64,000 nt of DNA from a virus (IMGVR_UViG_3300001598_000045:1-64000); one strand, 5' to 3'. Numbered from the stretch's first letter, positions 24,353 through 58,282 are shown. Made by a program: numbers and translations. The notes: a model not told the origin generated them from the sequence alone.

Positions 24353-24441
24353 AGTATATAATAGGATTCGAACCTATGACTTCCTTTAATTATATTCTCC
24401 AACTATAATTAATGGTGTTCTACCGACTGAACTATATATTT
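24353..24441 (-). tRNA. tRNA-like gene with atypical anticodon/variable region (possible intron or pseudo-tRNA)
   Basis: Minus-sense sequence has a canonical D-arm (TA-GTTC-AGTCGGTA-GAAC-A) and T-arm (ATAGG-TTCGAAT-CCTAT). The acceptor stem has 5 bp plus 2 terminal mismatches. 38 nt lie between the D and T arms, containing a 9-bp palindrome ttaattata/tataattaa. No standard 7-nt anticodon loop can be drawn. Confidence 0.45.
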
Positions 24442-45599: not shown

Positions 45600-46256
45600 T
45601 TAATCTTTCAACATAGATCTTAATTCTTTATCTGACTTCTTTAATTCCTCTATCCTAAAAAATCTATCAATACTCTTAAATGATGTTAGATAGTATTGTT
45701 TTCTATCTTCTACATCATTATCAGTACCATAAGATAATACTAGGTCCTCAAAACTAATATAAGAGTCATTTAAAACTAACTTCAATGTCTCAGAATCTAT
45801 ATACTTTCTAGCTGTTCCTGGTTGTAATTCAGCTAATGTTATATGAGGATTATATTCACTAAAATCTGAAGATACTCCATACTTAATACGCAAACCTTTA
45901 TTTATTATATTTACCATATCAAATATTTCACTATCTTTCTTCAACTTTAATACTATATAATCACTGTCATTCTCAAACATACCAAGATCAAACATAGTAA
46001 ATACACCACACTCATGATCACCTTTACATAAGTTAATAAAATCTTCAAAATCAGAACCTAAGATACTTTTTACATCTCCTAATAATTCTTTTCTTGGTAA
46101 TTCTTTCCCCTGTGCATATAATAAGGTAATGTGTGAATCAAACTCTAAACCAGTATCTTTCAAATCATCATAATCAAATATAGATCCGAAATCAACTGGT
46201 GCATCTAAATTCATTGCCCACATAAGACAACTATTCATTACATCTTTAGTATCCAT
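45600..46256 (-). CDS. 2H phosphoesterase (LigT / 2',3'-cyclic phosphodiesterase family)
   Basis: Two HxT/S tetrapeptides, FDSHITLLYA and YNPHITLAEL, at the spacing typical of the 2H superfamily. Confidence 0.75.
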   Translation of the reverse strand: MDTKDVMNSCLMWAMNLDAPVDFGSIFDYDDLKDTGLEFDSHITLLYAQGKELPRKELLGDVKSILGSDFEDFINLCKGDHECGVFTMFDLGMFENDSDYIVLKLKKDSEIFDMVNIINKGLRIKYGVSSDFSEYNPHITLAELQPGTARKYIDSETLKLVLNDSYISFEDLVLSYGTDNDVEDRKQYYLTSFKSIDRFFRIEELKKSDKELRSMLKD

Positions 46257-46262
46257 ATTTTA

Positions 46263-46943
46263 TTATTTTTGATTCTTAAGTCTAAATTTAGCTTTCATTT
46301 TATTAAGATTAGCTTTTAAATCAGAACCTCCTTGATTAAATCCTTTACTATCAACTACGGTAAGCCCAAGTCCTAGTAAGTTATTTAAGAAAGTTTGGTT
46401 ATCCTCTCTAGCTGAATCTTGTCTGGCAGCGTTAATATATTGTTTCGCATTCCTGCTCAATAAAACGCTCAATTCCATTTCACCGATCTTTTGCCCAGTT
46501 ACACGATATCTACCGCGTCCCAATATTGGCTCATCTCGTTTTGCACTAATATCTCTAGAGTACATTGAGGTAGTTACTTTGTTAGAATATGATGGAATGT
46601 GATATAATTCTTCTAATGTCATATAACCACACTGTAATTCTTTCTCTACAGGTATAAACTTTCCCTGCATATCCTTAACTACTTTCTCATATTCTTCTTC
46701 TGGTAAATTATCCTTCAACTCTTTAAGATCTGTTACTGTAGACTTTGGAACTAGAATTTTATTTTGTGATTTAAGTCCTAGCTCATCCATCATCTTATCT
46801 ACTTTCTCTGGCGTATAGTCTGAAAAACAACCTACATTGAAATAATATACTTCTTCTATAGGTTTTGAATTGTGAAGCTTTATAAATTCTTCTACATCCA
46901 TTTTATCATAACGACCAGGATAGTACTTGTTTATTAAAGGCAT
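46263..46943 (-). CDS. rpoB: RNA polymerase beta subunit, C-terminal coding segment
   Basis: GRGRYRVTGQKIGEMELSVLLSRNAKQYI aligns to the bacterial beta block [22 protein letters not shown]. Confidence 0.8.
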   Translation of the reverse strand: MPLINKYYPGRYDKMDVEEFIKLHNSKPIEEVYYFNVGCFSDYTPEKVDKMMDELGLKSQNKILVPKSTVTDLKELKDNLPEEEYEKVVKDMQGKFIPVEKELQCGYMTLEELYHIPSYSNKVTTSMYSRDISAKRDEPILGRGRYRVTGQKIGEMELSVLLSRNAKQYINAARQDSAREDNQTFLNNLLGLGLTVVDSKGFNQGGSDLKANLNKMKAKFRLKNQK

Positions 46944-47083
46944 TATCTTCTTCTGCCCTGTTTTCGTCGTTTTGTATTCCTCTACTAAATCATATAACTT
47001 GTGACAGATATTTCCTAGTTCTTGTTCAACTAAAACACCTGCGATTTTACGATTACACTTATCTAATATATTTCTATATTAGC

Positions 47084-47171
47084 TAGACTATATTATCTCA
47101 TCTAGAGTTTCGCCTATAGTCTTTGAACTTTTTTTAAGTTGCTGATTTGATTTCTCATCTTTCCAGCATTT
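47084..47171 (-). ncRNA. group I intron catalytic core g (compact, no ORF)
   Basis: Minus-sense P AAATGCTGGAAAG, Q CAAATCAGCAAC, R GTTCAAAGACTATAGG, S GATAATATAGTCTAG. Confidence 0.55.
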
Positions 47172-47347
47172 AGTGAAATTTTATTACTACATATATAAAA
47201 TATAGTACTGTAGGGATTCATTACGACTTCAACACGGCGCTGCTTTCCTGACTCATCTACCATTATAGGCATTTCTTCATCCGGGGTTACAGCAGATATA
47301 ACACCTTTTCCTCCATCAAATTTATATTCTAATTTTGTATTAGAATT

Positions 47348-48381
47348 TAGACTGTATCTTTTTCAAATTGTACACAGTCGTTGAAAATTTTAATTTTTAT
47401 TTATTAATTTATATCCACTATCTTCTTCTGATAGTAATCTTTCTACATAATGTCTAGATCTATGTAATAATTTTGCACAATTAGTAATGCTCCTATATAT
47501 CGTTCCATCAGGGCCTATTATTTTATTTGATACATCAAAATTATCTACTTTATATTTAAATCCTTTTTCTGGATGAAATTTTAGCCAATTATATATAGTA
47601 CCTCTAGATACAGAATTATTTTTAGCACATTCATCCATCGTCCCATACTCTTTTCCATCTGGACCAATAATTTGACGCGCTGTTATTGAATTCGAGCCAG
47701 ATATTTTATCAATTGCCGATTGTTTTATCTTTATATTTTTTCTAGACTCACTTAATTTTTGTTTTTGTTCATCTGAAAATATAATTCCTTTTCTAGAATT
47801 TGACAATTTTTTCCTAGACTCTTCATTTAAAATATGACCTTTTCTTATCTTACTTAATAATTCTTTCGTTTCTTGTGAAGCTTTTTTTCCTTTATGAGAT
47901 TCAGATAATTTCTTTTTTGTCTCATCTGAATGTTTTCGATTAGTATTTAATTTACGTAAATAATCTATACTCTTCTCTCTCAATTCCTCTAATGATTTTA
48001 ATGAAACTCTATAAGGAATTTTATTACCATTTTCATCTAATTTATAGGTATTTTCTTTACGATCACTATGACTTGATTGAATCATTCGTAAATATGCATA
48101 TAACAGTTCATTACTGTCTGGATAAATAAATGTTAATAAATGATGCGCAATTATATGTTCTTTAAAAGTTAATAATACTAAATTATCTTTATTATCATTT
48201 CCACCTAAACATTTAGGAAGTATATGATGTTTATTTAATCCATCCCCTTTTCTCTTTATAACTCCTCTAAATTTACGTGATTCTACTAAATCGTCATATA
48301 CTTTTTTATAATTCATCTTTGCTATAATTAATAAATTTTATAAAATTTTGCTGATTCTATATTAATAGTTCCAGCAATTCT
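47348..48381 (-). mobile_element. group I intron core f carrying the HNH homing endonuclease ORF between the P/Q and R/S elements
   Basis: P/Q AGAATTGCTGGAACTATTAATATAGAATCAGCA at 48349-48381. R/S TTTCAACGACTGTGTA...AAAAGATACAGTCTAAA at 47348-47387, directly after the HNH stop. Confidence 0.6.
47390..48316 (-). CDS. HNH homing endonuclease with NUMOD3 and NUMOD1-like DNA-binding repeats
   Basis: HHILPKCLGGNDNKDNLVLLTFKEHIIAHH (HNH). Repeated KKLSESHKGK/RKKLSNSRKG (NUMOD3-like) and C-terminal GPDGKEYGTMDECAKNNSVSRGTIYNWL x2 (NUMOD1-like). Confidence 0.85.
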   Translation of the reverse strand: MNYKKVYDDLVESRKFRGVIKRKGDGLNKHHILPKCLGGNDNKDNLVLLTFKEHIIAHHLLTFIYPDSNELLYAYLRMIQSSHSDRKENTYKLDENGNKIPYRVSLKSLEELREKSIDYLRKLNTNRKHSDETKKKLSESHKGKKASQETKELLSKIRKGHILNEESRKKLSNSRKGIIFSDEQKQKLSESRKNIKIKQSAIDKISGSNSITARQIIGPDGKEYGTMDECAKNNSVSRGTIYNWLKFHPEKGFKYKVDNFDVSNKIIGPDGTIYRSITNCAKLLHRSRHYVERLLSEEDSGYKLINKN

Positions 48382-49467
48382 TAATCTATATAGACCTGGA
48401 TTATTTGATCTATTCGTAACTTTCGATCCTACCATAAGAGTAGTACGTTTTATCAATCTAACTCGTACGGTATAAACTACCTTATACTCATCTGGATTCA
48501 TAATAATTGGATCTAAAGTATCCGCAGCAATATACTCAGGAAATTTATCGTATATTACTTTTCTATTTTTATTATCATTATACTCTTTAATTACTTTTTC
48601 AGATTGTCTAGCAAAAGTAAAGTCAGGCATCTTTTCAGTTTTAGGTACTTTTGGTTTCTTCATTTCTTGAACCATAATATCAGAAACATAAGCCTCATCT
48701 ATATTGTTCGGTACTTTTAAATAATCCTCAACCGTATATTCTGTTAAATCCTTTCCTTCTTCACCAAATAATCCACCTAATTTTTCATTAAGAGCTCTAT
48801 TTATTTCATCTAATCTTACTGTTTTAAATAAAGTAACTACACTATCACCTGACTTAACTTGTGTGCCAATTGGAGCTAACCATTTTAATGATGCGCTATT
48901 CTTAACATTTATTTTTAAGTCAATAATACTATAGTGAGCCATTCTATTTGCATAAGATTCAGATACGACAAGTGCATCCTCATTTACTAAACCATGATGC
49001 GCTGAGAATAAAACTAACGTATTTAATCCCATCTTATATGTGTCTTTCTCTAAACCAACAGCTCCAGTAATCACATCGCCTTTTTTGACTTTCTGACCTA
49101 CTTTTACTTTTGGCTCAGTATAAACACAAACATCATTCATAGATTGTATTGCACTACGTCTTAATACATCTACCTCTGTCTTATCCGGTAACTCAATAAC
49201 AACTTTATCTTCATCTATTCGCTTTACTTTACCACTCTCATAAGCAAATTTTTCACTAAGAATATTGTTACTAAGCTCTTCATTATTACCAGTATCAACT
49301 AATGGTCTCTGTGCATTAACTAGAGGTATACTTTGTTTAAGCATTCCGGTGCCCATTGAGATTCGCACAGAGTCAGTACTAGAGATAAAAGGTATTCTTC
49401 TAGTTGTTTCAGAAAGACGGTAATCTGGGTGTAAATCAATTAAATCAATTTCTTCTACAGGTACCAT
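48328..49467 (-). CDS. rpoB: RNA polymerase beta subunit, middle coding segment
   Basis: [40 protein letters not shown] aligns to bacterial beta DVHPTHYGR...[36 protein letters not shown] aligns to GDKMAGRHGNKG. The last roughly 20 codons run into intron core f. ATG at 49467; the ORF track lists a TTG at 49479. Confidence 0.8.
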   Translation of the reverse strand: [379 protein letters not shown]

Positions 49468-49720
49468 TTTTCTTTTCAATCTATACTTTACTTCTACCTC
49501 ACCATTCTCATTGGGCTTTAATTTCTTTTCTTTATAATCAACAAACTCTGATGCACAAACTTTTAAATTAAGATAATCTAAATATTGTATTGTTATCTTA
49601 TTAAATTCTTTGTCATATACATCAAATAATATTCCATCATCAGTAATATGTGCCGATACTGTTAATGAGTTTTGAATATTTGTGTTTTGATTGCATTATT
49701 AGATATACTTAAAATATATC

Positions 49721-49837
49721 TTAGGACTATATCACTCTAAAATTATATTAGATTATATACATAGTCTCTGAATATAAAATATTTATTAAAGATATTTATA
49801 CTGCTGATTACTATTAAATTTAGTTTCCAGCATTTTT
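49721..49837 (-). ncRNA. group I intron catalytic core e
   Basis: Minus-sense P AAATGCTGGAAAC, Q TAATCAGCAGTA, R TTCAGAGACTATG, S AGAGTGATATAGTCCTAAG. Confidence 0.55.
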
Positions 49838-49919
49838 ATATAATTTTCCATTTATTTCAATGGCGACCAATTAAAATCGGAGTCATTTATTCAAGATATG
49901 TCAAATCTAAATATCTTGA

Positions 49920-50027
49920 TAGACTGTATCTTTATTATCTTTGCACACAGTCTTTGTATGTAATTATCTATATATTAATTAAAATAATTACACTGCTGAT
50001 TCTATATTAATAGTTCCAGCAATTCTC
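49920..50027 (-). ncRNA. group I intron catalytic core d
   Basis: Minus-sense P GAGAATTGCTGGAAC, Q GAATCAGCAGTG, R ACAAAGACTGTGTG, S AAAGATACAGTCTATC. The P/Q module is nearly identical over 37 nt to those of cores c and f. Confidence 0.55.
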
Positions 50028-50068
50028 AAAGTTCTTAGGAAATTTTAATTTCCTCGGACTACTCTTAT

Positions 50069-51031
50069 TTAATCCGCGAGATCTATAAGATCGCTCAAGC
50101 TTTCATTATATGCAGTTGTCTTTGGAATAGTTACTTTTGCTCCTAAACTTCCAAGGTTCATTGCATTTATTCCGGGTGGTACTTGCACATTAGAATCACC
50201 CGCAGTAGCTTCTTGTGTTCCTTTAAAGAATCTATATGAGAGACGAGTTATTGAAGTTATTTGATCCTGTAACTTACCTTGTTTCATGAAGTAATTTTGT
50301 ATTTGTTTACGAGCTCCATAGTAATTTCTTCTATTATTGCTCTTAAATATAAACTGCATAAAGCCGGTAGGAACAGAGTCAATAGTTTTATCAATAATTA
50401 AATCTCTTAATCTATCATCTCCAAAGGCTAGACATTCCTGAATAAGTTGAGTGGTAATATATTCTGGTTTATAGTCTAGATCTAATTTTATTTGAAACTT
50501 TTTACTTTGTCGTTCTGTAAGTTTCAATAATTCTTTCTTCTCCCCTGTAACAGTATCAATGTCGTCATATTTTATATCTATGGCTCTTTCTGAATATCCT
50601 GTTTCAAAGTTTGTTCTTTTTACTTTAAGAATCTTAGTTTTAATGTCATATCTTCTATCATAGTCAAAGTTAATAATATACTCACCTGAACCTGACATTT
50701 TAATACGACAATCATAATCTGGATTCAATTTATTAGTTGCGATACGATATGCACCCTCTATAATAAAAGCACCATCAATCTCTTTAGGTACTTCAAATTC
50801 AGATTCTAAAATTCCTGGATCATCATTTATAGTATACTCAATTTTAACTTTATGAGATGCAGTTAAACCATTCTCAATAAAATAAGATGCTGGTTTTTCT
50901 GGTTCTTCTACTATATGAAATTTTAGATCTGTTATTTTCTTTTTAGGATTATATTGATCTGCACTATTTAAAAATCTCGATACTAATATTTTAGCTCCAT
51001 GATTCTTAAAATATTCGTTAAAATTACTCAT
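50069..51031 (-). CDS. rpoB: RNA polymerase beta subunit, N-terminal coding segment
   Basis: GAFIIEGAYRIATNKL aligns to the bacterial beta block GTFVINGTERVIVSQL. ITSITRLS aligns to the region before fork loop 2. Confidence 0.8.
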   Translation of the reverse strand: MSNFNEYFKNHGAKILVSRFLNSADQYNPKKKITDLKFHIVEEPEKPASYFIENGLTASHKVKIEYTINDDPGILESEFEVPKEIDGAFIIEGAYRIATNKLNPDYDCRIKMSGSGEYIINFDYDRRYDIKTKILKVKRTNFETGYSERAIDIKYDDIDTVTGEKKELLKLTERQSKKFQIKLDLDYKPEYITTQLIQECLAFGDDRLRDLIIDKTIDSVPTGFMQFIFKSNNRRNYYGARKQIQNYFMKQGKLQDQITSITRLSYRFFKGTQEATAGDSNVQVPPGINAMNLGSLGAKVTIPKTTAYNESLSDLIDLAD

Positions 51032-51381
51032 TACAATAGTGTTTTAATATTTAATTGTTTATACTCACAATCTACCGTGTTAAAAAATTCTTCTATATCT
51101 TTTCTAATACTATCCTTTAAATCTCTAGCTTCTACATATTCACTCATTACCTTTTCACTTCTACATCTAAAAAATGCATCATAAGTAACTAAATAATTAT
51201 ATGTATCTTTTAACTGATATAATACTAACTTAACTGAGAATCTTTCATACTTATCTGGAATATTATCTTTCAAACTAGTATATAAAATATCTCTAGCCTT
51301 TATTACATCTGGATCTTTACTGTCTAATATATTATAGGGAATTTCATATGATAGCGTAATTTTAAAATAATGATCGTTCAT
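51031..51381 (-). CDS. hypothetical protein (possible small polymerase-associated subunit or downstream exon)
   Basis: 116-aa ORF between the beta' and beta genes. Confidence 0.4.
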   Translation of the reverse strand: MNDHYFKITLSYEIPYNILDSKDPDVIKARDILYTSLKDNIPDKYERFSVKLVLYQLKDTYNYLVTYDAFFRCRSEKVMSEYVEARDLKDSIRKDIEEFFNTVDCEYKQLNIKTLL

Positions 51382-51404
51382 ATTTATATCACCTTGTATA
51401 TGTA

Positions 51405-51656
51405 TTAAAAGTCCATATTCATCATGTTACCAGTTATATTTCTTACTGGTCTTGACTCTAACTGAACTTCTTTCTTTTCTGTAATTTCCTCTTTCTTCCT
51501 ATCATCCACAACAGGCATTTCCGGAGTATTTACAGTATTTTCATTTAAACTACCCGAAGACGATGAAGTAGAATAAACTACCTCACCATCTTTACGGATA
51601 ATAATATTGATATTTAATTCTCTCTCAAATCTTGGTAAATCAAATTCAATCTTCAT
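51405..51656 (-). CDS. hypothetical protein; candidate downstream exon following intron core c
   Basis: 83-aa ORF beginning about 75 nt after the S element of core c. Confidence 0.35.
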   Translation of the reverse strand: MKIEFDLPRFERELNINIIIRKDGEVVYSTSSSSGSLNENTVNTPEMPVVDDRKKEEITEKKEVQLESRPVRNITGNMMNMDF

Positions 51657-51739
51657 ATCTATTTTTCATCAAGTTTATCATTCATGAGCAAGCCCAAAAT
51701 TGTTTCCGTCCTTTAAAAAATATACATATCTGTATATTA

Positions 51740-51834
51740 TAGACTATATCTTTAAAATTCATACATAGTCTTTGAAAATAACATATATTTAAAGTTATTC
51801 TGCTGATTCTATATTAAATAGTTCCAGCAATTCC
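51740..51834 (-). ncRNA. group I intron catalytic core c
   Basis: Minus-sense P GGAATTGCTGGAAC, Q GAATCAGCAGAA, R TTCAAAGACTATG, S AAAGATATAGTCTATA. Begins 2 nt after the HNH-2 stop. Confidence 0.55.
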
Positions 51835-51846
51835 TAAAATTCTAAA

Positions 51847-52662
51847 TTAAATAATTTTCTTTCGTTTAGTCTTCTTGTAAAATTTAAAGCCTTTTTCTGG
51901 ATGTTTTTCTATCCAATAGACAATCGTACTATAACTTACTAAATATTTTTTTGCCATTTCTACTACTGAAAGTATTTCATTAGAGGGATCAATAACTAAA
52001 TCCAGATGCTCCCTTCTTTTTATACTTAAGCGTTTCTTTACTTCATCAGTATGATGTTTATTAAAAAATGGATTTGCTTCGCCAGTAAACTTACCTAGCC
52101 TACTTTTTGAAATCTTATCACAATGTTCTTTAGTAAATTTAGGTCTTTTACGATTTTTTAAAGACTTTCGTATTTTTTCTTTATGTTCTTCACTTAAATG
52201 TCCATTATAATTCCAATGTTTTTCTCCTAGCTCACGTTCACTCATTTTCTTTCTTGACTCTTCAGTATGTTTTCTATTATACATCGGATTATTTTCTCCA
52301 GATCTATCGATTTTAGATCTAGAATAAGCTTTTTCTCGTAATGTTGCAATTAGTTTTGAGTTCTTTAATGCAACGAATTTAACATCTTTCCCTCTATTTA
52401 ATGTTTTATCAAATTTTGTCAAAGCAAGAATTGAATATAATAACTTAGAGTTATCTGGGTAAATTTCAGATAATAGTATATGTGCTAAAAGATGTTCTCT
52501 AGCCGTTAATAGTACTTTATTATCAGCTGTATCTGGACCATTTAAACATTTTGGTACAATATGGTGAATTTCATAATACTCTCCTTTTAATTTTGATTTA
52601 TCTAAACCTCTTTTCTTTCTAGAATCCATTAAATCATCATATATTTTTTTATAATTCATTAT
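51847..52662 (-). CDS. HNH-NUMOD homing endonuclease 2 (in frame with the upstream beta' segment)
   Basis: MNYKKIYDDLMDSRKKRG...EIHHIVPKCLNGPDTADNKVLLTAREHLLAH. Its N-terminus is nearly identical to that of HNH-1. NUMOD3-like repeats and a C-terminal NUMOD1-like module. Confidence 0.8.
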   Translation of the reverse strand: MMNYKKIYDDLMDSRKKRGLDKSKLKGEYYEIHHIVPKCLNGPDTADNKVLLTAREHLLAHILLSEIYPDNSKLLYSILALTKFDKTLNRGKDVKFVALKNSKLIATLREKAYSRSKIDRSGENNPMYNRKHTEESRKKMSERELGEKHWNYNGHLSEEHKEKIRKSLKNRKRPKFTKEHCDKISKSRLGKFTGEANPFFNKHHTDEVKKRLSIKRREHLDLVIDPSNEILSVVEMAKKYLVSYSTIVYWIEKHPEKGFKFYKKTKRKKII

Positions 52663-54003
52663 ATAGTAATTTTTAATTTTATTTAATTTAGGACAACATT
52701 TAATTATCACATCACCAGAAAGATCTACATCTCCCTTAAGTGCTTTATCAACAATTTTAGAACTATAACCATAACTCAAAACAGTATAGAATGATTTTTT
52801 ATTTAACACAGATTGACCCGCACCTTGATATTGTATTTCCTCTAATTTATCTTTAGGTCCATAAGTTAATTTAGTTAAACCTACAAACAATAACTCAATA
52901 ATTTCTTCTGGAGTCGAATCTAAAGATGATAAACCAGTCTTCATATATCCATCATCAGTTAAAGTATACATCTGCTTACGGAAAATTAAATATATATCAT
53001 TTAGTCTCTTTGGTCCTAATACACTTGATACAGTTCTCATATTAACTACACCAGAACAAATCTTATCAAACTTATGAACCTGAGCACCATCTGGAAAATA
53101 ATACATACTTCTTGGATTATATTGATATTCTTGATTACCAATAAATACATGAATCTCTCCTTTATTATCTTCTGTATATTTAATTATACCATCATCATAT
53201 GCATAACAATCTGCTACATTAATTGTTTCTTTTTCAAAATATTTAGTTCCATTTCCACCTTTTGCATTCATTAAATTAATTAATGTATTTACTTTTACAA
53301 TAGGTGAACTAGTATTATATGCAACACAAATATTTTCTCCTTTTTCAAATTTTGTTTTTCCTAAAGTTACAAGATTATCTGGACGTGGATATTTTAATTC
53401 AGCGCCTCTAACTTTTAAATATATCCACTTTCCTTCTTCACTAAAAGTACATGGTTTATCTGCTACTAAATAACCAGATTTATCCAAAACTCTTTCATGA
53501 CCACCGTGTTTTAATCCTAATGCAGCTTGTGTAGTACCTTCTGTAAAACTTGTTGCAAAAGATAATCCAATAGCAGCTCCATCAGTAAAATCAGATACAC
53601 CTGGACGATGACCTATTAAATCAGGAGTCACTACATTCAAGTCACCTTTTACTTTTGTAACTATAGAACGAACAGGAACTAAATCATTTTCATCTCCTTT
53701 TGCTATCGGAGTATTAGGATAAACTTTTCCATTTGGTGCAGTTCTTCCTAATGCTTTATAACGAGGAATTAATAAACCTTCATTAGTCTTGTCTTCTCCT
53801 TCATGATAAACGAAATTATTTAATACGAAGGAAATTTGTCTTGTTAAATATCCCGAAGTAGGACATATATAGCCTTTAAAACTATATACGGAATTATAAT
53901 CTCTATAATTCATTAGACTATACCATGAGATAATAAATATATCCCTACAATATTTAGTCGTTGATCTTATTACTACATTACTACTCGGCTTTAATGTCTT
54001 CAT
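52663..54003 (-). CDS. rpoC: RNA polymerase beta' subunit, C-terminal coding segment (trigger-loop region)
   Basis: TSGYLTRQ aligns to bacterial NSGYLTRRL. GAAIGLSFATSFTEGTTQAALGLKHGG aligns to the trigger loop [36 protein letters not shown] aligns to TGLSSLVVLDS. The 5' roughly 40 codons may be intron. Confidence 0.75.
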
Positions 54004-54224
54004 TCTTTATCCCTGCGGCGGAATTCTTAAGCTCCTGATAATGATTTATTTGCTTTAATACTTCGCCGGCTGTAACTAGAATGGTAGTAATAGCCGATAA
54101 AACTTTCAATACATTTCCTAATTTCATAATAAGTTGCTGATTAATTGTTAAAAATTTTATATCTTTTTCACACTATTCCCAGCATTTTTCTGCTTTTTGA
54201 TAGTGATGCTCCAATTCTTCATAT
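54004..54224 (-). mobile_element. intervening sequence with a group I P/Q module and a divergent GC-rich candidate P7
   Basis: P/Q AAATGCTGGGAA...TTAATCAGCAAC at 54133-54187. Candidate P7 strands cagccggcg at 54064-54072 and cgccgcagg at 54013-54021. Confidence 0.4.
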
Positions 54225-55214
54225 TTAAACACCACCTTGCTTAATAGACTGTAATGATCTATTTTCTACACTATGTAATATCATGTCATGTTCTGCATAT
54301 GAACCTAACAATGATCCACGTGTAATAACTGGTTTTTCATCTATACCCGAAACAATCAATTGAGGCATGTTTAAGGCGGATATTGATGAAATTTTAACTC
54401 GTCCAGCTCGATTCAATTCATTCTTTAAATCTTCTGTAAATTTGCCTTCTATTTCTTTCTCGTATTTAGCATATTTATCAGTTAAGATTGCAAGTTTCTG
54501 TTGATCCGTTAATTCCTTCGAGTCAGCTACTTTACAAATTTCTTTATAAAGTTCTGTATTGGTATCTACATATAATGTCTTATAGTCAAATGTTACTACA
54601 CCTGCTAAAGTCACTACACGAAGAGCAAATATTTGTAATTCTCTTCTCTTCTCAACACCATCTTCTTGCCCATTTAAATAAGCTGATAACTTCGCTGCGG
54701 CTTTTGCATCAATTCGTTTAAATGGGTCTGATAAAATATGAAGATCTTCTAAGTCTGCATCCAATATTTTAGAAATTCTTATTCTACCATAACTTGTTGT
54801 TTTACTTTTATAGTTCACATTTCCAATTTTGCCTGTATATGTAATTGGAGTACCTATTTTTATTTTCTTATCAACCTCTACATCTTTTAATAATTGAACA
54901 TAATCTGTATAGAAATGTTTTGGATTCTCTAAGTCATCCTCATTTTCCAATACATATTCTGTTGCCACTGCTAAACCATTAAGAGTTTCATGATTAAATG
55001 GAAATATAGGCTTTCCACTTTTTTTATATACATTTACATAACGAGGCGACATTTTTTTATATGTATCCTCTGCAATTTCTTCTGGAACAAGCTGCAGGGC
55101 TACGGTATCGCCGTCAAAATCGGCATTTAATGGCTCACAAACTGCAATTGGATAGTGAATTGCATAATCGTCAACTAATCTTTGCTTCATACAGAATATT
55201 GAATATTCGTGCAA
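54225..55214 (-). CDS. rpoC: RNA polymerase beta' subunit, middle coding segment (catalytic NADFDGD)
   Basis: AIHYPIAVCEPLNADFDGDTVALQLVP aligns to bacterial [27 protein letters not shown]. Confidence 0.85.
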   Translation of the reverse strand: MHEYSIFCMKQRLVDDYAIHYPIAVCEPLNADFDGDTVALQLVPEEIAEDTYKKMSPRYVNVYKKSGKPIFPFNHETLNGLAVATEYVLENEDDLENPKHFYTDYVQLLKDVEVDKKIKIGTPITYTGKIGNVNYKSKTTSYGRIRISKILDADLEDLHILSDPFKRIDAKAAAKLSAYLNGQEDGVEKRRELQIFALRVVTLAGVVTFDYKTLYVDTNTELYKEICKVADSKELTDQQKLAILTDKYAKYEKEIEGKFTEDLKNELNRAGRVKISSISALNMPQLIVSGIDEKPVITRGSLLGSYAEHDMILHSVENRSLQSIKQGGV

Positions 55215-55990
55215 TGATGGTTGGCGATCAACTCATGTTTTGTCGAATATATTTCAATTCAACCACAGACTATATTTTCTATTACTAGTTTTATCCATAG
55301 TCTTTGAGCTTAAATATAATTTTTAACTTCTAAATTTAAGTTTTTATTTTCTTTTGTTTTTTGTAATAAGAAATTATAAACTTGTCTTTTTTCTTTTTTA
55401 TCCATGAATTCAGTATATCTAGTACCGGATTCATCTAATTGTGTATATTTTTGGAATTTTATAAATGTATCAAATTCTAAATCTGCTAGTTCATATGTAG
55501 GTCCTGAAATAATAAGAAGTACTTTACCACCTAAAATTTGTTTCTGTGTTCGTCTTTCCCAGTCTTTAGAGAAACCTACTTTAATACTAGATGGAAAATC
55601 TAGCATATAAATATAACCATTATCTCCTTGAAATTTATTATGGAGTAAGGTTCTATTAGCTTGTCGTTGATGATACTCTGATCCATATCCGTGAGAAGAT
55701 TTATCTAAAAGATTTCTTTCACGGATACTTTTCATTCTTTCTCTCTTTTCATCAGATACATTCCACAAACCAATCTTAGAGGTACCATTATATCTTCCTT
55801 CTTGATGTAGTTGTTTCATGTGTTCTGATCTATTGAATGTCAGATCAGAGTATGAATTTTGTCGTAATATAATCATATCTGTCTGTTTTTTAATTAATAG
55901 AGATTCCAGTTAAAAATAAATTTAAGCTGCTGATTCCTTAACTTCCACGTTAAAGTTCCAGCAATTCATAAAATTCGAATTGGCATTTTC
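55215..55990 (-). mobile_element. group I intron (core a) carrying the GIY-YIG-like ORF between the P/Q and R/S elements
   Basis: P/Q TGAATTGCTGGAAC...GGAATCAGCAGC at 55927-55968. R/S GCTCAAAGACTATGG...GAAAATATAGTCTGTG at 55264-55309, abutting the ORF stop. Confidence 0.6.
55310..55876 (-). CDS. GIY-YIG superfamily (T5orf172/MUG113-like) endonuclease candidate, intron-encoded
   Basis: C-terminal GYIYMLDFPSSIKVGFSKDWERRTQ resembles the N-terminal domain of ORF 9908-10525. The basic N-terminal region KRERMKSIRERN is NUMOD3-like. Confidence 0.55.
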   Translation of the reverse strand: MIILRQNSYSDLTFNRSEHMKQLHQEGRYNGTSKIGLWNVSDEKRERMKSIRERNLLDKSSHGYGSEYHQRQANRTLLHNKFQGDNGYIYMLDFPSSIKVGFSKDWERRTQKQILGGKVLLIISGPTYELADLEFDTFIKFQKYTQLDESGTRYTEFMDKKEKRQVYNFLLQKTKENKNLNLEVKNYI

Positions 55991-57181
55991 GGGTTTACCA
56001 ATTTGTAGGGAATTTAACCCTAACGTACCAGTATTGAAATATATTAGCACGCATTGTTTTTCAGCATACTCTTGGAACAGTTTTTGAGTTTCTGGGTCAA
56101 GAGCTTCATACTTAGTTGCCTTTTTTGCTTCATCATAAGTAAAGTTCAATTCCTCTTGTAATCTCTTAATAAATCCTTCGCGGCACATTTCATAAGCTAT
56201 ACTACGAGGAACACCTATTTCATCAATTGCAAGGGTAGTAGACGGAACAATTGGACATCTAGCTGAATTTTTAGTGCGGACAGAATAAAGTTCACGAGCT
56301 AAATTATCTTTCGAAGTTTCCAATAATTTAGTTGCTTCTCTTTTACCAGTATTAATTAAAGCACGTAATAATGCAGTATATCGTACTCTCTCTCCTGGTG
56401 TTTTGAACTGTGACATAACTAAGTTGTAATTAAGCGCATTACTCTTTACAGCTTCAGTACAACACAATCTAATTAAGTTACTATACCAAATAGATAGTTT
56501 ATGTGAACCCATTACTTTTTTACCATCTTTATAACCTAATGTAAAAGGTCTCATGATGGAAGGTTGCACAAGATAATATCTATTTATTAGTTTCATATAT
56601 TCTGTCAATCTTTCTGGAAAATGTTTTTTGATAATTGCCATAAGTCCTTCATAAGAACATTTACTTTCATCTGTAATAAACTCAGTAATTTTTAGTTCTT
56701 TTTTAGTAGCATTATATTCAAATTGGCAAGAATCAAATACTTTAATTCCCAACTTCTTTCCTCCACGGGTTGCACTATACCCATTTCGTTTTAAATCATC
56801 TCCTAAGAAATCTAACTTAATCGTACTAGATTCAAAAATATCATCAAATAAGTCTTTAAAGATATCAAATCTAAGATCATTTAGATAATAAAAAGGAAAT
56901 TCAATTCTAGCAAATCTTCTTAAAGCTTCATCTCTAGTAAATACTCTTGCACCACAATTAGGACAAGGTTCTGGAGAGGGTTGTCGAATTTTACCACAAA
57001 TACATCTATCTGCTATAGGCGAACCAAATGCATCTATGTCGTAAACACCTCCTGGAACTGGATGTACTCCGTCAAAGCTTAAATTAAGATCTCGGAAGTC
57101 AAAAAGAATTCTATCAACTCCATCACTTCTTGAATAATCTACAATAGCTTCATCTGTTAATAACTCTAGTGATACTGCCAT
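55922..57181 (-). CDS. rpoC: RNA polymerase beta' subunit, N-terminal coding segment
   Basis: Bacterial-type zinc ribbon CICGKIRQPSPEPCPNCGARVFTRDEALRRFARIEF aligns to CxCGK...CxxCGVEV...RRERMGHIEL. RTKNSARCPIVPSTTLAIDEIGVPRSIA aligns to KRVDFSARSVI...LxIDEVGVP. The last roughly 20 codons overlap the intron P/Q module. Confidence 0.85.
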   Translation of the reverse strand: MAVSLELLTDEAIVDYSRSDGVDRILFDFRDLNLSFDGVHPVPGGVYDIDAFGSPIADRCICGKIRQPSPEPCPNCGARVFTRDEALRRFARIEFPFYYLNDLRFDIFKDLFDDIFESSTIKLDFLGDDLKRNGYSATRGGKKLGIKVFDSCQFEYNATKKELKITEFITDESKCSYEGLMAIIKKHFPERLTEYMKLINRYYLVQPSIMRPFTLGYKDGKKVMGSHKLSIWYSNLIRLCCTEAVKSNALNYNLVMSQFKTPGERVRYTALLRALINTGKREATKLLETSKDNLARELYSVRTKNSARCPIVPSTTLAIDEIGVPRSIAYEMCREGFIKRLQEELNFTYDEAKKATKYEALDPETQKLFQEYAEKQCVLIYFNTGTLGLNSLQIGKPENANSNFMNCWNFNVEVKESAA

Positions 57182-57193
57182 ATTTTTTTAAAA

Positions 57194-58282
57194 TTAATTA
57201 TTGATTTCATTCCAGATAATTTTCTTTGATAAATCGGTATCCATTGCATTATCTGCAGACCATTTCTTATAGACTTCTTTAACATCAGCAATTGCTTCAC
57301 CTCTGGTTTTATCCTTTAGTTTTTCATAAATTCCTGCATCTTCATCTATAACTACTTCAATTAAATCTGAAATAACATCTTGTGTGATTGCTTTAGAAGT
57401 ATTTGTAAACTTACTTCTATACTCACGATAGACAAGAACATCATCATAAGTTAAATCAAGATCTTTGTATTCAGATGAGGTACGAATTTCAGCAGGTTCT
57501 TTAGTAAACCAGGCTAATTGTAATTTTCGTACACGTTCCGCTACTTTATGTCTACCTAATTCATCATATCGTTTAGCAAGATCTTCTACAATATCATACT
57601 TTGACTTTATTATTTTACTTAATGCATTATCAATTTGTTTTGCATATACCCTAGGCATTGTTGGACATTTTAAAATAAGGTCATACATACCTGAAGAGAA
57701 CAAATAAATAATAAGAGCCGGGATATGTCTTTGTTTTCTACGTCTTGAAACGACAGAGTCCCTAGATAAATCTCTACTAGCAAGATAGCCAATAAAGCGA
57801 GCAATATGATCTCTAGCTTCCTGAGCAAACATTTTATTAAAACCGGAGTCATCTTCTAGTACAAAATCTATATCTACATCTTCTCCTGTAAGTGGAGAAT
57901 CTGGGACATAAATAGAGTTAACCATACGAGAGTGACCTTGCTTATGTAACATCTCCTTTACCATATTTCCAGCTGTATAAACTGAAGTATTTTTAGGACA
58001 AGCCAATGCGATAGTAGTAAGTGCATCTTCAATAGCAGTTTCTCTACTATTTTTATTAGCAGCAACAATGTCATCATAAGCAGAGATTAACCAACTTTCA
58101 GTAGATGTAATTCTACCACCTGATTCTTTTTCTACATCAGTTTTCTTTTTTGGTTTCTCTTCCTCTTCTTGCTCAATGGAATCATCATTTTCCTCTTCAT
58201 CTTCGGAATCATCTTCATTACCCTGATAATAACCCTCTTCTTCAAGTTCATCATCATCGCCTAACAAATAATCATCTTCCAT
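57194..58282 (-). CDS. hypothetical protein with highly acidic N-terminus
   Basis: The first roughly 45 residues are D/E-rich (MEDDYLLGDDDELEEEGYY...EEEEKPKKK). Immediately upstream of beta'. Confidence 0.5.
   Translation of the reverse strand: MEDDYLLGDDDELEEEGYYQGNEDDSEDEEENDDSIEQEEEEKPKKKTDVEKESGGRITSTESWLISAYDDIVAANKNSRETAIEDALTTIALACPKNTSVYTAGNMVKEMLHKQGHSRMVNSIYVPDSPLTGEDVDIDFVLEDDSGFNKMFAQEARDHIARFIGYLASRDLSRDSVVSRRRKQRHIPALIIYLFSSGMYDLILKCPTMPRVYAKQIDNALSKIIKSKYDIVEDLAKRYDELGRHKVAERVRKLQLAWFTKEPAEIRTSSEYKDLDLTYDDVLVYREYRSKFTNTSKAITQDVISDLIEVVIDEDAGIYEKLKDKTRGEAIADVKEVYKKWSADNAMDTDLSKKIIWNEINN

Follow-up and report, generated by a model that had tools for sequence, protein, structure and literature searches.

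Group I introns and HNH endonuclease genes are already known en masse in Jug phages (360-402 kilobases (kb), Bacteroides/Phocaeicola), for which 2513 group I introns with a mean length of ~206 nucleotides (nt) and 505 HNH genes have been reported, 88 of the latter being called 'inside other genes', with metatranscriptome reads supporting 37 of 76 introns (Sci Adv 2026, PMC12880540). The viral DNA analysed here, IMGVR_UViG_3300001598_000045:1-64000 (64,000 nt, hereafter the window), adds a further one: the gene for the RNA polymerase (RNAP) beta' subunit is very probably interrupted, 17 codons before its stop codon, by a mobile group I intron that holds an HNH gene in the loop of P2 and is followed by a micro-exon. 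The window resembles Jug phages in that compact group I introns fragment essential genes and HNH is the dominant endonuclease, and the loci related to it include 360-400 kb gut-phage contigs, which fall in the Jug size range, their Jug membership being unconfirmed. A single-sequence search for related loci found none, and alignment A1 as query gave related IMG/VR loci (n=75), to which the beta' protein of the window is 54-75% identical, making it a relative whose clade membership is unproven. The Jug report highlights terL, nrdD and DNA polymerase; the available passages of PMC12880540 mention neither this site near the C-terminus of rpoC nor an ORF placed in P2, a micro-exon or the loss of P8, all of which are seen in the window.

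A second described system is gp210 of phage PhiPA3, an HNH nicking endonuclease whose gene lies in a putative group I intron within an RNAP subunit gene of a jumbo phage (Science 2024, PMC11620839). In both systems the intron with the HNH gene interrupts a conserved stretch of a phage gene for a multisubunit RNAP, and the target of gp210, the intron-less allele of a co-infecting relative, is also the target proposed here. The gp210 intron lies in the beta subunit gene of a Pseudomonas chimallivirus, however, and not in a beta' gene, and its activity is experimental, whereas that of the window is a reading of sequence. The window would be one more example of homing endonucleases and introns moving among essential jumbo-phage RNAP genes, elements that can mediate competition between co-infecting phages, as with PhiPA3 gp210. 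The HNH protein of the window is also similar to I-HmuI and I-BasI, from the DNA polymerase introns of SPO1 and Bastille, and to I-TevIII, in having an N-terminal HNH, NUMOD3 repeats and a C-terminal helix-turn-helix-like tail. The open reading frames (ORFs) of I-HmuI, I-BasI and I-TevIII sit in loops other than P2, whereas the ORF of the window lies in P2, and it differs further in that the Pfam HNH models are sub-threshold.

The position of the intron is apparent from the conserved end of beta'. All 59 of the intron-less homologues inspected end ...GD(V/I/T)(M/I)T.xxLGLL..(K)LD.., for example ...LSGDVMTETILGLLLNNKLDEK or a close variant, and in 74 of the 75 related IMG/VR loci the DNA is continuous across the insertion site, with the beta' stop codon followed immediately by a gene starting MGTIKFE(I/L)D... 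Homologues read ...GDVMTETILG.. over the junction point; exon 1 of the window reads ...LSGDV and then diverges from them into IIKCCPK..., and 995 nt downstream, right after the core, the sequence G ACG GAA ACA AUU UUG GGC UUG CUC AUG AAU GAU AAA CUU GAU GAA AAA UAG is found. The encoded peptide, TETILGLLMNDKLDEK*, is in frame with beta' only after splicing. At the junction, GUGAU|GACGG, GUG AU (to 52706) meets G ACG (from 51710) to give V-M-T, the exon ends being ...GGUGAUGUGAU and GACGGAAACA, and the predicted spliced product ends ...LSGDVMTETILGLLMNDKLDEK, also written ...GDVMTETILGLLMNDKLDEK, matching the intron-less homologues. Excision would thus restore an uninterrupted conserved host gene. 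Peptides specific to the predicted spliced product are ..GDVMTETILGLLMNDK and DVDLSGDVMTETILGLLMNDK, those of a read-through fusion would be ..GDVIIKCCPK.. and the junction peptide DVIIKCCPKLNK, and an intron-less allele is predicted to read ...GGTGATGTGATGACGGAAACA... across the site. Two other junctions were considered: GAUGU|G (GDV-TETILG) was rejected because the homologues inspected are one residue longer, GDV(M/I)TET, which GUGAU|G fits, and a junction after GUGAUA (GDVITET, as in P0002) is disfavoured because the exon would end in A and not in U.

An earlier note on this DNA had proposed that beta' continues in a downstream exon, and the micro-exon, which completes the conserved C-terminus, bears this out. 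The same note had sought that exon in ORF 51405-51656 or ORF 51031-51381, for which nothing but their downstream position speaks, and this continuation is almost certainly wrong. Homologues of both are separate, ATG-initiated genes after the beta' stop in intron-less relatives, those of ORF 51405-51656 lying directly after the stop in 70+ loci; neither ORF matches beta' or omega families in Pfam or PHROGs, and ORF 51405-51656 has no Pfam or PHROG match of any kind; and the micro-exon accounts fully for the beta' C-terminus. The TAG of the micro-exon lies 2 nt before ATG 51656 of the next gene (MKIEFDLPRF..), an arrangement that is the same in relatives.

The segment removed has the anatomy of a group I intron. 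The P (AAUUGCUGGAA), Q (AAUCAGCAG), R (UUCAAAGACUAU) and S (AAAGAUAUAGUCU) elements are all found, along with the core pairings P3, P4, P6 and P7 and the A-rich junctions J4/5, J6/7 and J8/7; the 5' splice site follows the U of a U.G wobble within the P1/guide helix, weak as that helix is; and the intron ends in an omega-G, ...AAAG|GACGG, the G|GAC junction occurring also in L077, L080 and L202. Together with the window, these loci represent the four phages with introns at this exact site, which are treated as independent. A Logan contig (L076, run SRR1221442) is 100% identical to window positions 61913-49997, and so is the same phage and gives no independent evidence. In L077-L079 the intron lies at the same codon with an HNH gene (P0121, 49% identical) in the same place, and exon 2 of L077 encodes (M)TNAVLGLLLNNKLDN*, matching the intron-less protein P0007. 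L080 and L081 possess a 160-nt ORF-less intron (core region 3789-3943 of L080) and a free-standing HNH gene (P0122, 45% identical) with a GTG start 5 nt after the beta' stop (locus 3789-4801 of L080). The JGI contig L202 possesses a 166-nt ORF-less intron, the first 21 nt of which are identical to the window intron, and its P2, CUAAUUUGC/GCAGAUUAG, closes a 10-nt loop. L202 was the one useful locus from a strict 5'-intron pattern applied to metagenome contigs; a degenerate version applied to viral contigs gave 120+ chance matches (L082-L161 and beyond), all of which were discarded.

The guide GUUGU is invariant in all four introns, and the exon variant of L080, ACGAU, still pairs with it. Each proposed helix pairs with differing sequences in all four, P5 being not assignable in L077; compensatory changes occur in P2, P3 and P4, and P5, P6 and P9 differ in sequence. 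P2 of L077, CUAACCAACA/UGUUGGUUAG, is fully compensatory to that of the window, and P4 changes between UGCUGG/UCAGCA and, in L080, UGCCGG/UCGGCA. These helices were checked sequence by sequence, since the MAFFT alignment A2 misregisters P2 of L080. For P3, the pairing UUUUA/UAAAG was rejected, as it would leave a J8/7 of just 2 nt, and AAUUU(U)A/UGAAUU is in register with AAUUU(U)G/CAAAUU of L077. A scan for the P..Q..R..S pattern over the window and the 75 related loci gave 253 compact cores (79 unique). P7 covaries among the unique ones: its variable pair is never mismatched, being A-U in 76 cores and G-C in the other 3. P3 covaries visibly across the unique cores, averaging 5.70 base pairs (bp) against 4.27 bp in re-paired controls (maximum 4.53 over 200 trials).

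As the P2 stem brackets the HNH ORF in both the window and L077 and the helices pair in all four introns, the ORF is assigned to the P2 loop. Its stop codon forms part of the 3' strand of P2, where RNA structure and the end of the ORF thus overlap. The earlier note had set a core, called core c, 2 nt after that stop; the core is a real group I core, but the UAA itself already belongs to P2. Its bounds for the element, 51740-52662, contain the HNH gene and the core but cut off P9 and the 3' splice site at 51740, the intron being 52705-51711.

Several features weigh against a functional intron. The core possesses no P8 hairpin, with 17 nt between the P7 strands (J7/3, P3' and 8 nt), and the intron is treated here as a P8-less variant. 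The P8 helix is part of textbook group I cores, and without it catalytic competence is not guaranteed. Scores for RF00028 fall far under the gathering score of 50 bits, the core giving two collinear partial matches at 51832-51764 (P4-P6-R, 13.9 bits) and 51754-51722 (S-P9, 21.1 bits, E=0.0017). Such matches appear only with a search space of a few hundred bases: at the Rfam gathering threshold the whole window gave only a tRNA-like match, and a 12.5 kb segment gave no group I match at E<=10. The low score reflects a sensitivity threshold and not a structural criterion; a full-length RF00028 alignment was obtained for its ORF-less sibling at 50080-49901 (28.7 bits, E=1.5e-5). P1 is a weak helix of 5 bp, 4 of them G.U, no P10 was found for intron 52705-51711, and splicing itself is predicted from sequence. 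In many phage group I introns the exon frame soon meets a stop codon, which is believed to safeguard folding (PMC3984707). The window intron lacks such a stop, and in all four introns at the site the exon-1 frame is open well past the splice site (52705-52660 in the window and the equivalents in L077, L080 and L202), so that ribosomes can read from exon 1 to the UAA in P2; such read-through could make a real fusion protein and disturb the folding of P1 and P2.

The missing P8, the weak P1 and the sub-threshold RF00028 scores would also be expected of a decayed intron that no longer splices, which would leave beta' truncated at about residue 432 or fused to the HNH module, and the last 17 codons as a relic. 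This is very improbable, given that exon 2 is intact, in phase and near the family consensus and ends where the gene ends in relatives, and that omega-G and all of the core helices are preserved, with covariation across the four phages. In addition, cores with <=18 nt between the P7 strands, too short for P8, recur around the beta' C-terminal gene neighbourhood (11 of the 79 unique cores and 69 of the 253 copies), which argues that they work.

The reading frame across the 5' splice site bears on a second alternative, that of a functional fusion. As the earlier note had observed, ORF 54003..51847 (-) is open without a break from the beta' segment into an HNH-NUMOD module; it spans 718 codons, the beta' segment taking up residues 1-448 of 718 amino acids (aa) and the module starting at M449. 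The note had read this as an intron ORF located 5' of the core and fused to the upstream exon; the HNH gene does lie 5' of the P3-P9 core, but the orthologous introns do not conserve frame continuity with the exon. Of the other option it had raised, a fortuitous fusion to a free-standing endonuclease, the first half holds for the frame, whereas the second does not, as the gene sits in the P2 loop. If the fusion were functional, the HNH protein would be made by read-through from exon 1, as are mitochondrial in-frame intron ORFs, and would either be released or act as a beta'-HNH chimera. This would be in keeping with the unbroken frame, with an exon frame that stays open in all four introns at the site and with the lack of a Shine-Dalgarno (SD) motif before ATG 52659. 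Nevertheless, it is improbable: the orthologous ORF of L077-L079 is out of frame with the exon (in L077 the HNH, in frame 1, overlaps the read-through of the exon, which is in frame 2), the HNH of L080 is a separate gene after the beta' stop, and the same Met starts most of the homologues inspected. The absence of an SD motif is uninformative, since GGAG, GAGG or AGGA occurs within 20 nt upstream of just 1 of the 65 ORFs of >=120 aa in the window, the leaders of which are 83% A+T. This near-absence would fit a host in which initiation does not depend on SD motifs, for instance one of the Bacteroidota, the hosts predicted for related Jug phages.

Sixteen sense codons join exon 1 to ATG 52659, and a shuffled 46-nt leader stays open in 14% of cases, which with 1/3 for phase gives 0.14 x 1/3 = ~0.05, in a clade with many intron ORFs (PMC12880540). 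The differing frame of L077, the separate HNH gene of L080 and the MNYKK starts together indicate that the in-frame fusion is probably fortuitous, although unspliced RNA may give rise to some chimeric protein. Mitochondrial exon-fused group I intron ORFs are similar to that of the window in being continuous with the upstream exon and 5' of the core, but differ in that frame continuity is absent from the orthologous L077 intron, and in that the HNH family of the window has its own conserved initiator Met and no LAGLIDADG maturase-type domain. Gene callers give a 'beta'-HNH' chimera of 688-718 aa (for example P0001) that misses the last 17 beta' codons, whereas the favoured gene model is two exons and an intron-borne endonuclease gene, and the same artefact is probably behind some of the 'HNH domains inside other genes' of related phages.

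The module starting at M449 contains three NUMOD3 repeats (61.5 bits against a Pfam cut-off of 20.4) and an EIHH..N..H motif, and matches PHROG 655 'homing endonuclease' (E=4e-44). The Pfam models HNH_4 (18.2 against a cut-off of 22) and HNH (15.8 against 21.4) are both sub-threshold, and one stretch resembles the I-TevI DNA-binding domain (1i3j, E=5.5e-4). By catalytic motif and NUMOD module, the predicted product is an HNH homing endonuclease of the phage HNH-NUMOD type. Its first residues had been said to nearly duplicate those of HNH-1, another HNH gene of the window (47390-48316), and the resemblance is real, with near-identical N-termini and 38% identity over 281 aa (E=4e-40). However, MNYKKIYD.L is the shared N-terminus of most of the 40 HNH homologues inspected among 679 matches, the top ones listed being mostly ~200-300 aa, which explains the resemblance and gives no sign of local duplication. 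The two nearest homologues come from the equivalent locus of other phages, and the presence and absence of both intron and ORF vary among relatives, which is consistent with mobility.

According to the mobile-intron reading, the pre-mRNA would fold into P1-P7 and P9, guanosine would attack after U52706, held in the U.G wobble by the guide GUUGU, and omega-G 51711 would set the 3' site for exon joining as GUG AU|G ACG. The HNH protein would most likely be translated from its own start codon, presumed to be ATG 52659. By analogy with I-HmuI, I-TevIII and PhiPA3 gp210, it would be expected to nick or cut the intron-less beta' alleles of co-infecting relatives near GGNGAYGTNATGACNGA, and repair would then copy the intron into the cut allele.

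Collaborative homing, with invasion by an endonuclease gene, has been proposed to explain how mobile group I introns originate (Zeng, Bonocora and Shub 2009, reviewed in PMC3984707). The states at the beta' site are similar to those of this model: the site is empty in 74 loci, L202 has an intron but no HNH gene, L080/L081 have such an ORF-less intron next to a free HNH gene, and in the window and L077 the HNH gene lies in P2. They differ from it in that both the succession of the stages and the specificity of cleavage are read from anatomy only. The arrangement in L080/L081 looks like the collaborative-homing stage before endonuclease invasion of the intron, but the free-standing HNH copy could equally have arisen by secondary excision.

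P8-less cores with 15-18 nt between the P7 strands lie at 51771-51741, 49953-49922, 47380-47350 and 35642-35613 of the window, at 3789-3943 of L080 and in L202. ORF-less versions of these introns are 160-185 nt long, and when the sibling intron is aligned to RF00028, a single nt stands in for 57 positions of the model. It is possible, at slightly below even odds, that these introns represent an ultra-compact lineage (~160-185 nt without an ORF) that has lost P8 and still splices, that the beta' site keeps the full series of mobile-intron genesis (empty, ORF-less, ORF-less with adjacent HNH, HNH in P2), and that exon-1 read-through is tolerated because the stop codon of the ORF falls within the 3' strand of P2, immediately before the core. 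If so, P8-less introns may rank among the smallest natural group I introns; the literature consulted gave no indication of whether such introns had been described before. P8-less mini-introns, and HNH copies that are free in some phages and intron-borne in others, are of interest for research into the structure of ribozymes and into how mobile introns arise.

Table. Coordinates of the beta' intron, its exons and genes, and the group I intron cores of the window; all features lie on the minus strand.
Feature	Coordinates	Strand	Details
Group I intron (I-C)	51711..52705	-	995 nt; 5' AAUUAAAUGUUGUC... to ...UUUUUAAAG; omega-G 51711
P1	52693..52710	-	exon GUGAU 52710-52706 / guide GUUGU 52697-52693; U.G wobble at 5' splice site
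P2 5' strand	52691-52684	-	CUAAAUUA; pairs with 51849-51842
P2 3' strand	51849-51842	-	UAAUUUAG; holds HNH stop UAA (51849-51847)
Catalytic core	51741..51841	-	helices P3-P7 and junctions
P3	51841-51835 / 51761-51756	-	AAUUU(U)A / UGAAUU
P4-P5	51829-51801	-	
P6	51799-51777	-	
J6/7 and P7 5' side; P7 3' side	51776-51765; 51747-51741	-	
P7	51771-51765 / 51747-51741	-	AGACUAU / AUAGUCU
J8/7		-	UUAAAGAU
P9 hairpin and 3' tail	51711..51740	-	P9 51737-51720; tail ends at omega-G 51711
HNH-NUMOD3 homing endonuclease gene (predicted)	51847..52659	-	270 aa and stop; inside P2 loop; ATG 52659 = M449
beta' penultimate exon	52706..53865	-	SGYLTRQ bridge-helix to ...LSGDV and AU; 5' end approximate, since another intron precedes
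Upstream boundary of beta' penultimate exon			placed from homologue P0006, which reads QSIKVSGVPSSGYLTRQ
beta' last exon (micro-exon)	51659..51710	-	52 nt, 17 codons, (M)TETILGLLMNDKLDEK*, directly after omega-G
Separate downstream gene	51405..51656	-	83 aa, MKIEFDLPRF..; homologue of MGTIKFE/MKIEFD gene
Gene following 51405-51656	51031-51381	-	homologue MNDNYYKISLSYEIPYNILDS in L202
I-A	P/Q 55962-55929, R/S 55303-55268	-	ORF 55876-55310 between
I-B	P/Q 54183-54136	-	between ..SIKQGGV and PTSGYLTRQ
I-D	50020-49922	-	
I-E	49831-49725	-	
I-F	48375-48350 / 47380-47350	-	HNH-1 between
I-G	47167-47086	-	
I-H	35692-35613	-	outside RNAP region

The window is AT-rich (~26-33% G+C), nearly all of its genes lie on the minus strand, and pieces of a multisubunit RNAP are encoded from ~57200 to ~47000. 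One neighbouring ORF contains an NADFDGD motif and a Pfam match to Rpb1_2 (Rpb1 domain 2), and another ORF of the region matches Rpb2 domain 6 (Pfam). Residues 1-448 of the 718-aa ORF gave no sequence-level match in Pfam or the PDB, including a PDB profile search with alignment A1, and so the beta' identity rests on fold comparison. An AF2 model of the spliced product, built with 38 homologues as input, has a pLDDT of 80 and a pTM of 0.83, and a Foldseek search with this model found the beta' chains of E. coli and M. tuberculosis (best 6n62_D, E=2.6e-12, prob 1.00), the top 50 being bacterial RNAP entries throughout (chains D or J). The model and the genomic context identify the segment as a predicted C-terminal part of RNAP beta'. 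A search with the beta' part gave 318 homologues on metagenomic jumbo-phage contigs of up to ~390 kb, and neither megablast of 46000-58000 nor tblastn of the beta' part gave a match in the annotated phage collection, indicating that there is no annotated close relative.

At least eight group I intron cores are present in the window (57200-47000 and 35692-35613, minus strand), seven of them within the RNAP beta'/beta region. Between P6 and P7 of intron I-A, a 188-aa ORF (55876-55310, -) with no Pfam or PHROG match may encode an undescribed intron protein or endonuclease. Outside the introns, an Rfam tRNA match at 24356-24439 (-) exceeds the gathering score at 38.7 bits and contains a stretch of 29 nt that corresponds to 13 in the model; no tRNA was called by ARAGORN anywhere in the window.

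The beta gene contains the HNH-1 intron (48413-47316, -), with P1 AUAGAU/GUCUAU and the HNH-1 ORF in the P6 loop, closed by the stem AAAAUUUU/AAAAUUUU. HNH-1 gives a weak I-HmuI_NUMOD-like match, and with HNH-1 in P6 and the HNH of the beta' intron in P2, two homologous HNH genes occupy different loops of related introns. Splicing of the HNH-1 intron after AAUAGAU and ..AAAUUUG would restore ..KVTNRYGGKGVISAV, which resembles RHGNKGVIS, a motif of E. coli beta. At 50068-49700 (-), the beta gene also contains a tandem pair of group I introns without ORFs, presumably separated by a very short exon within ~49884-49850.

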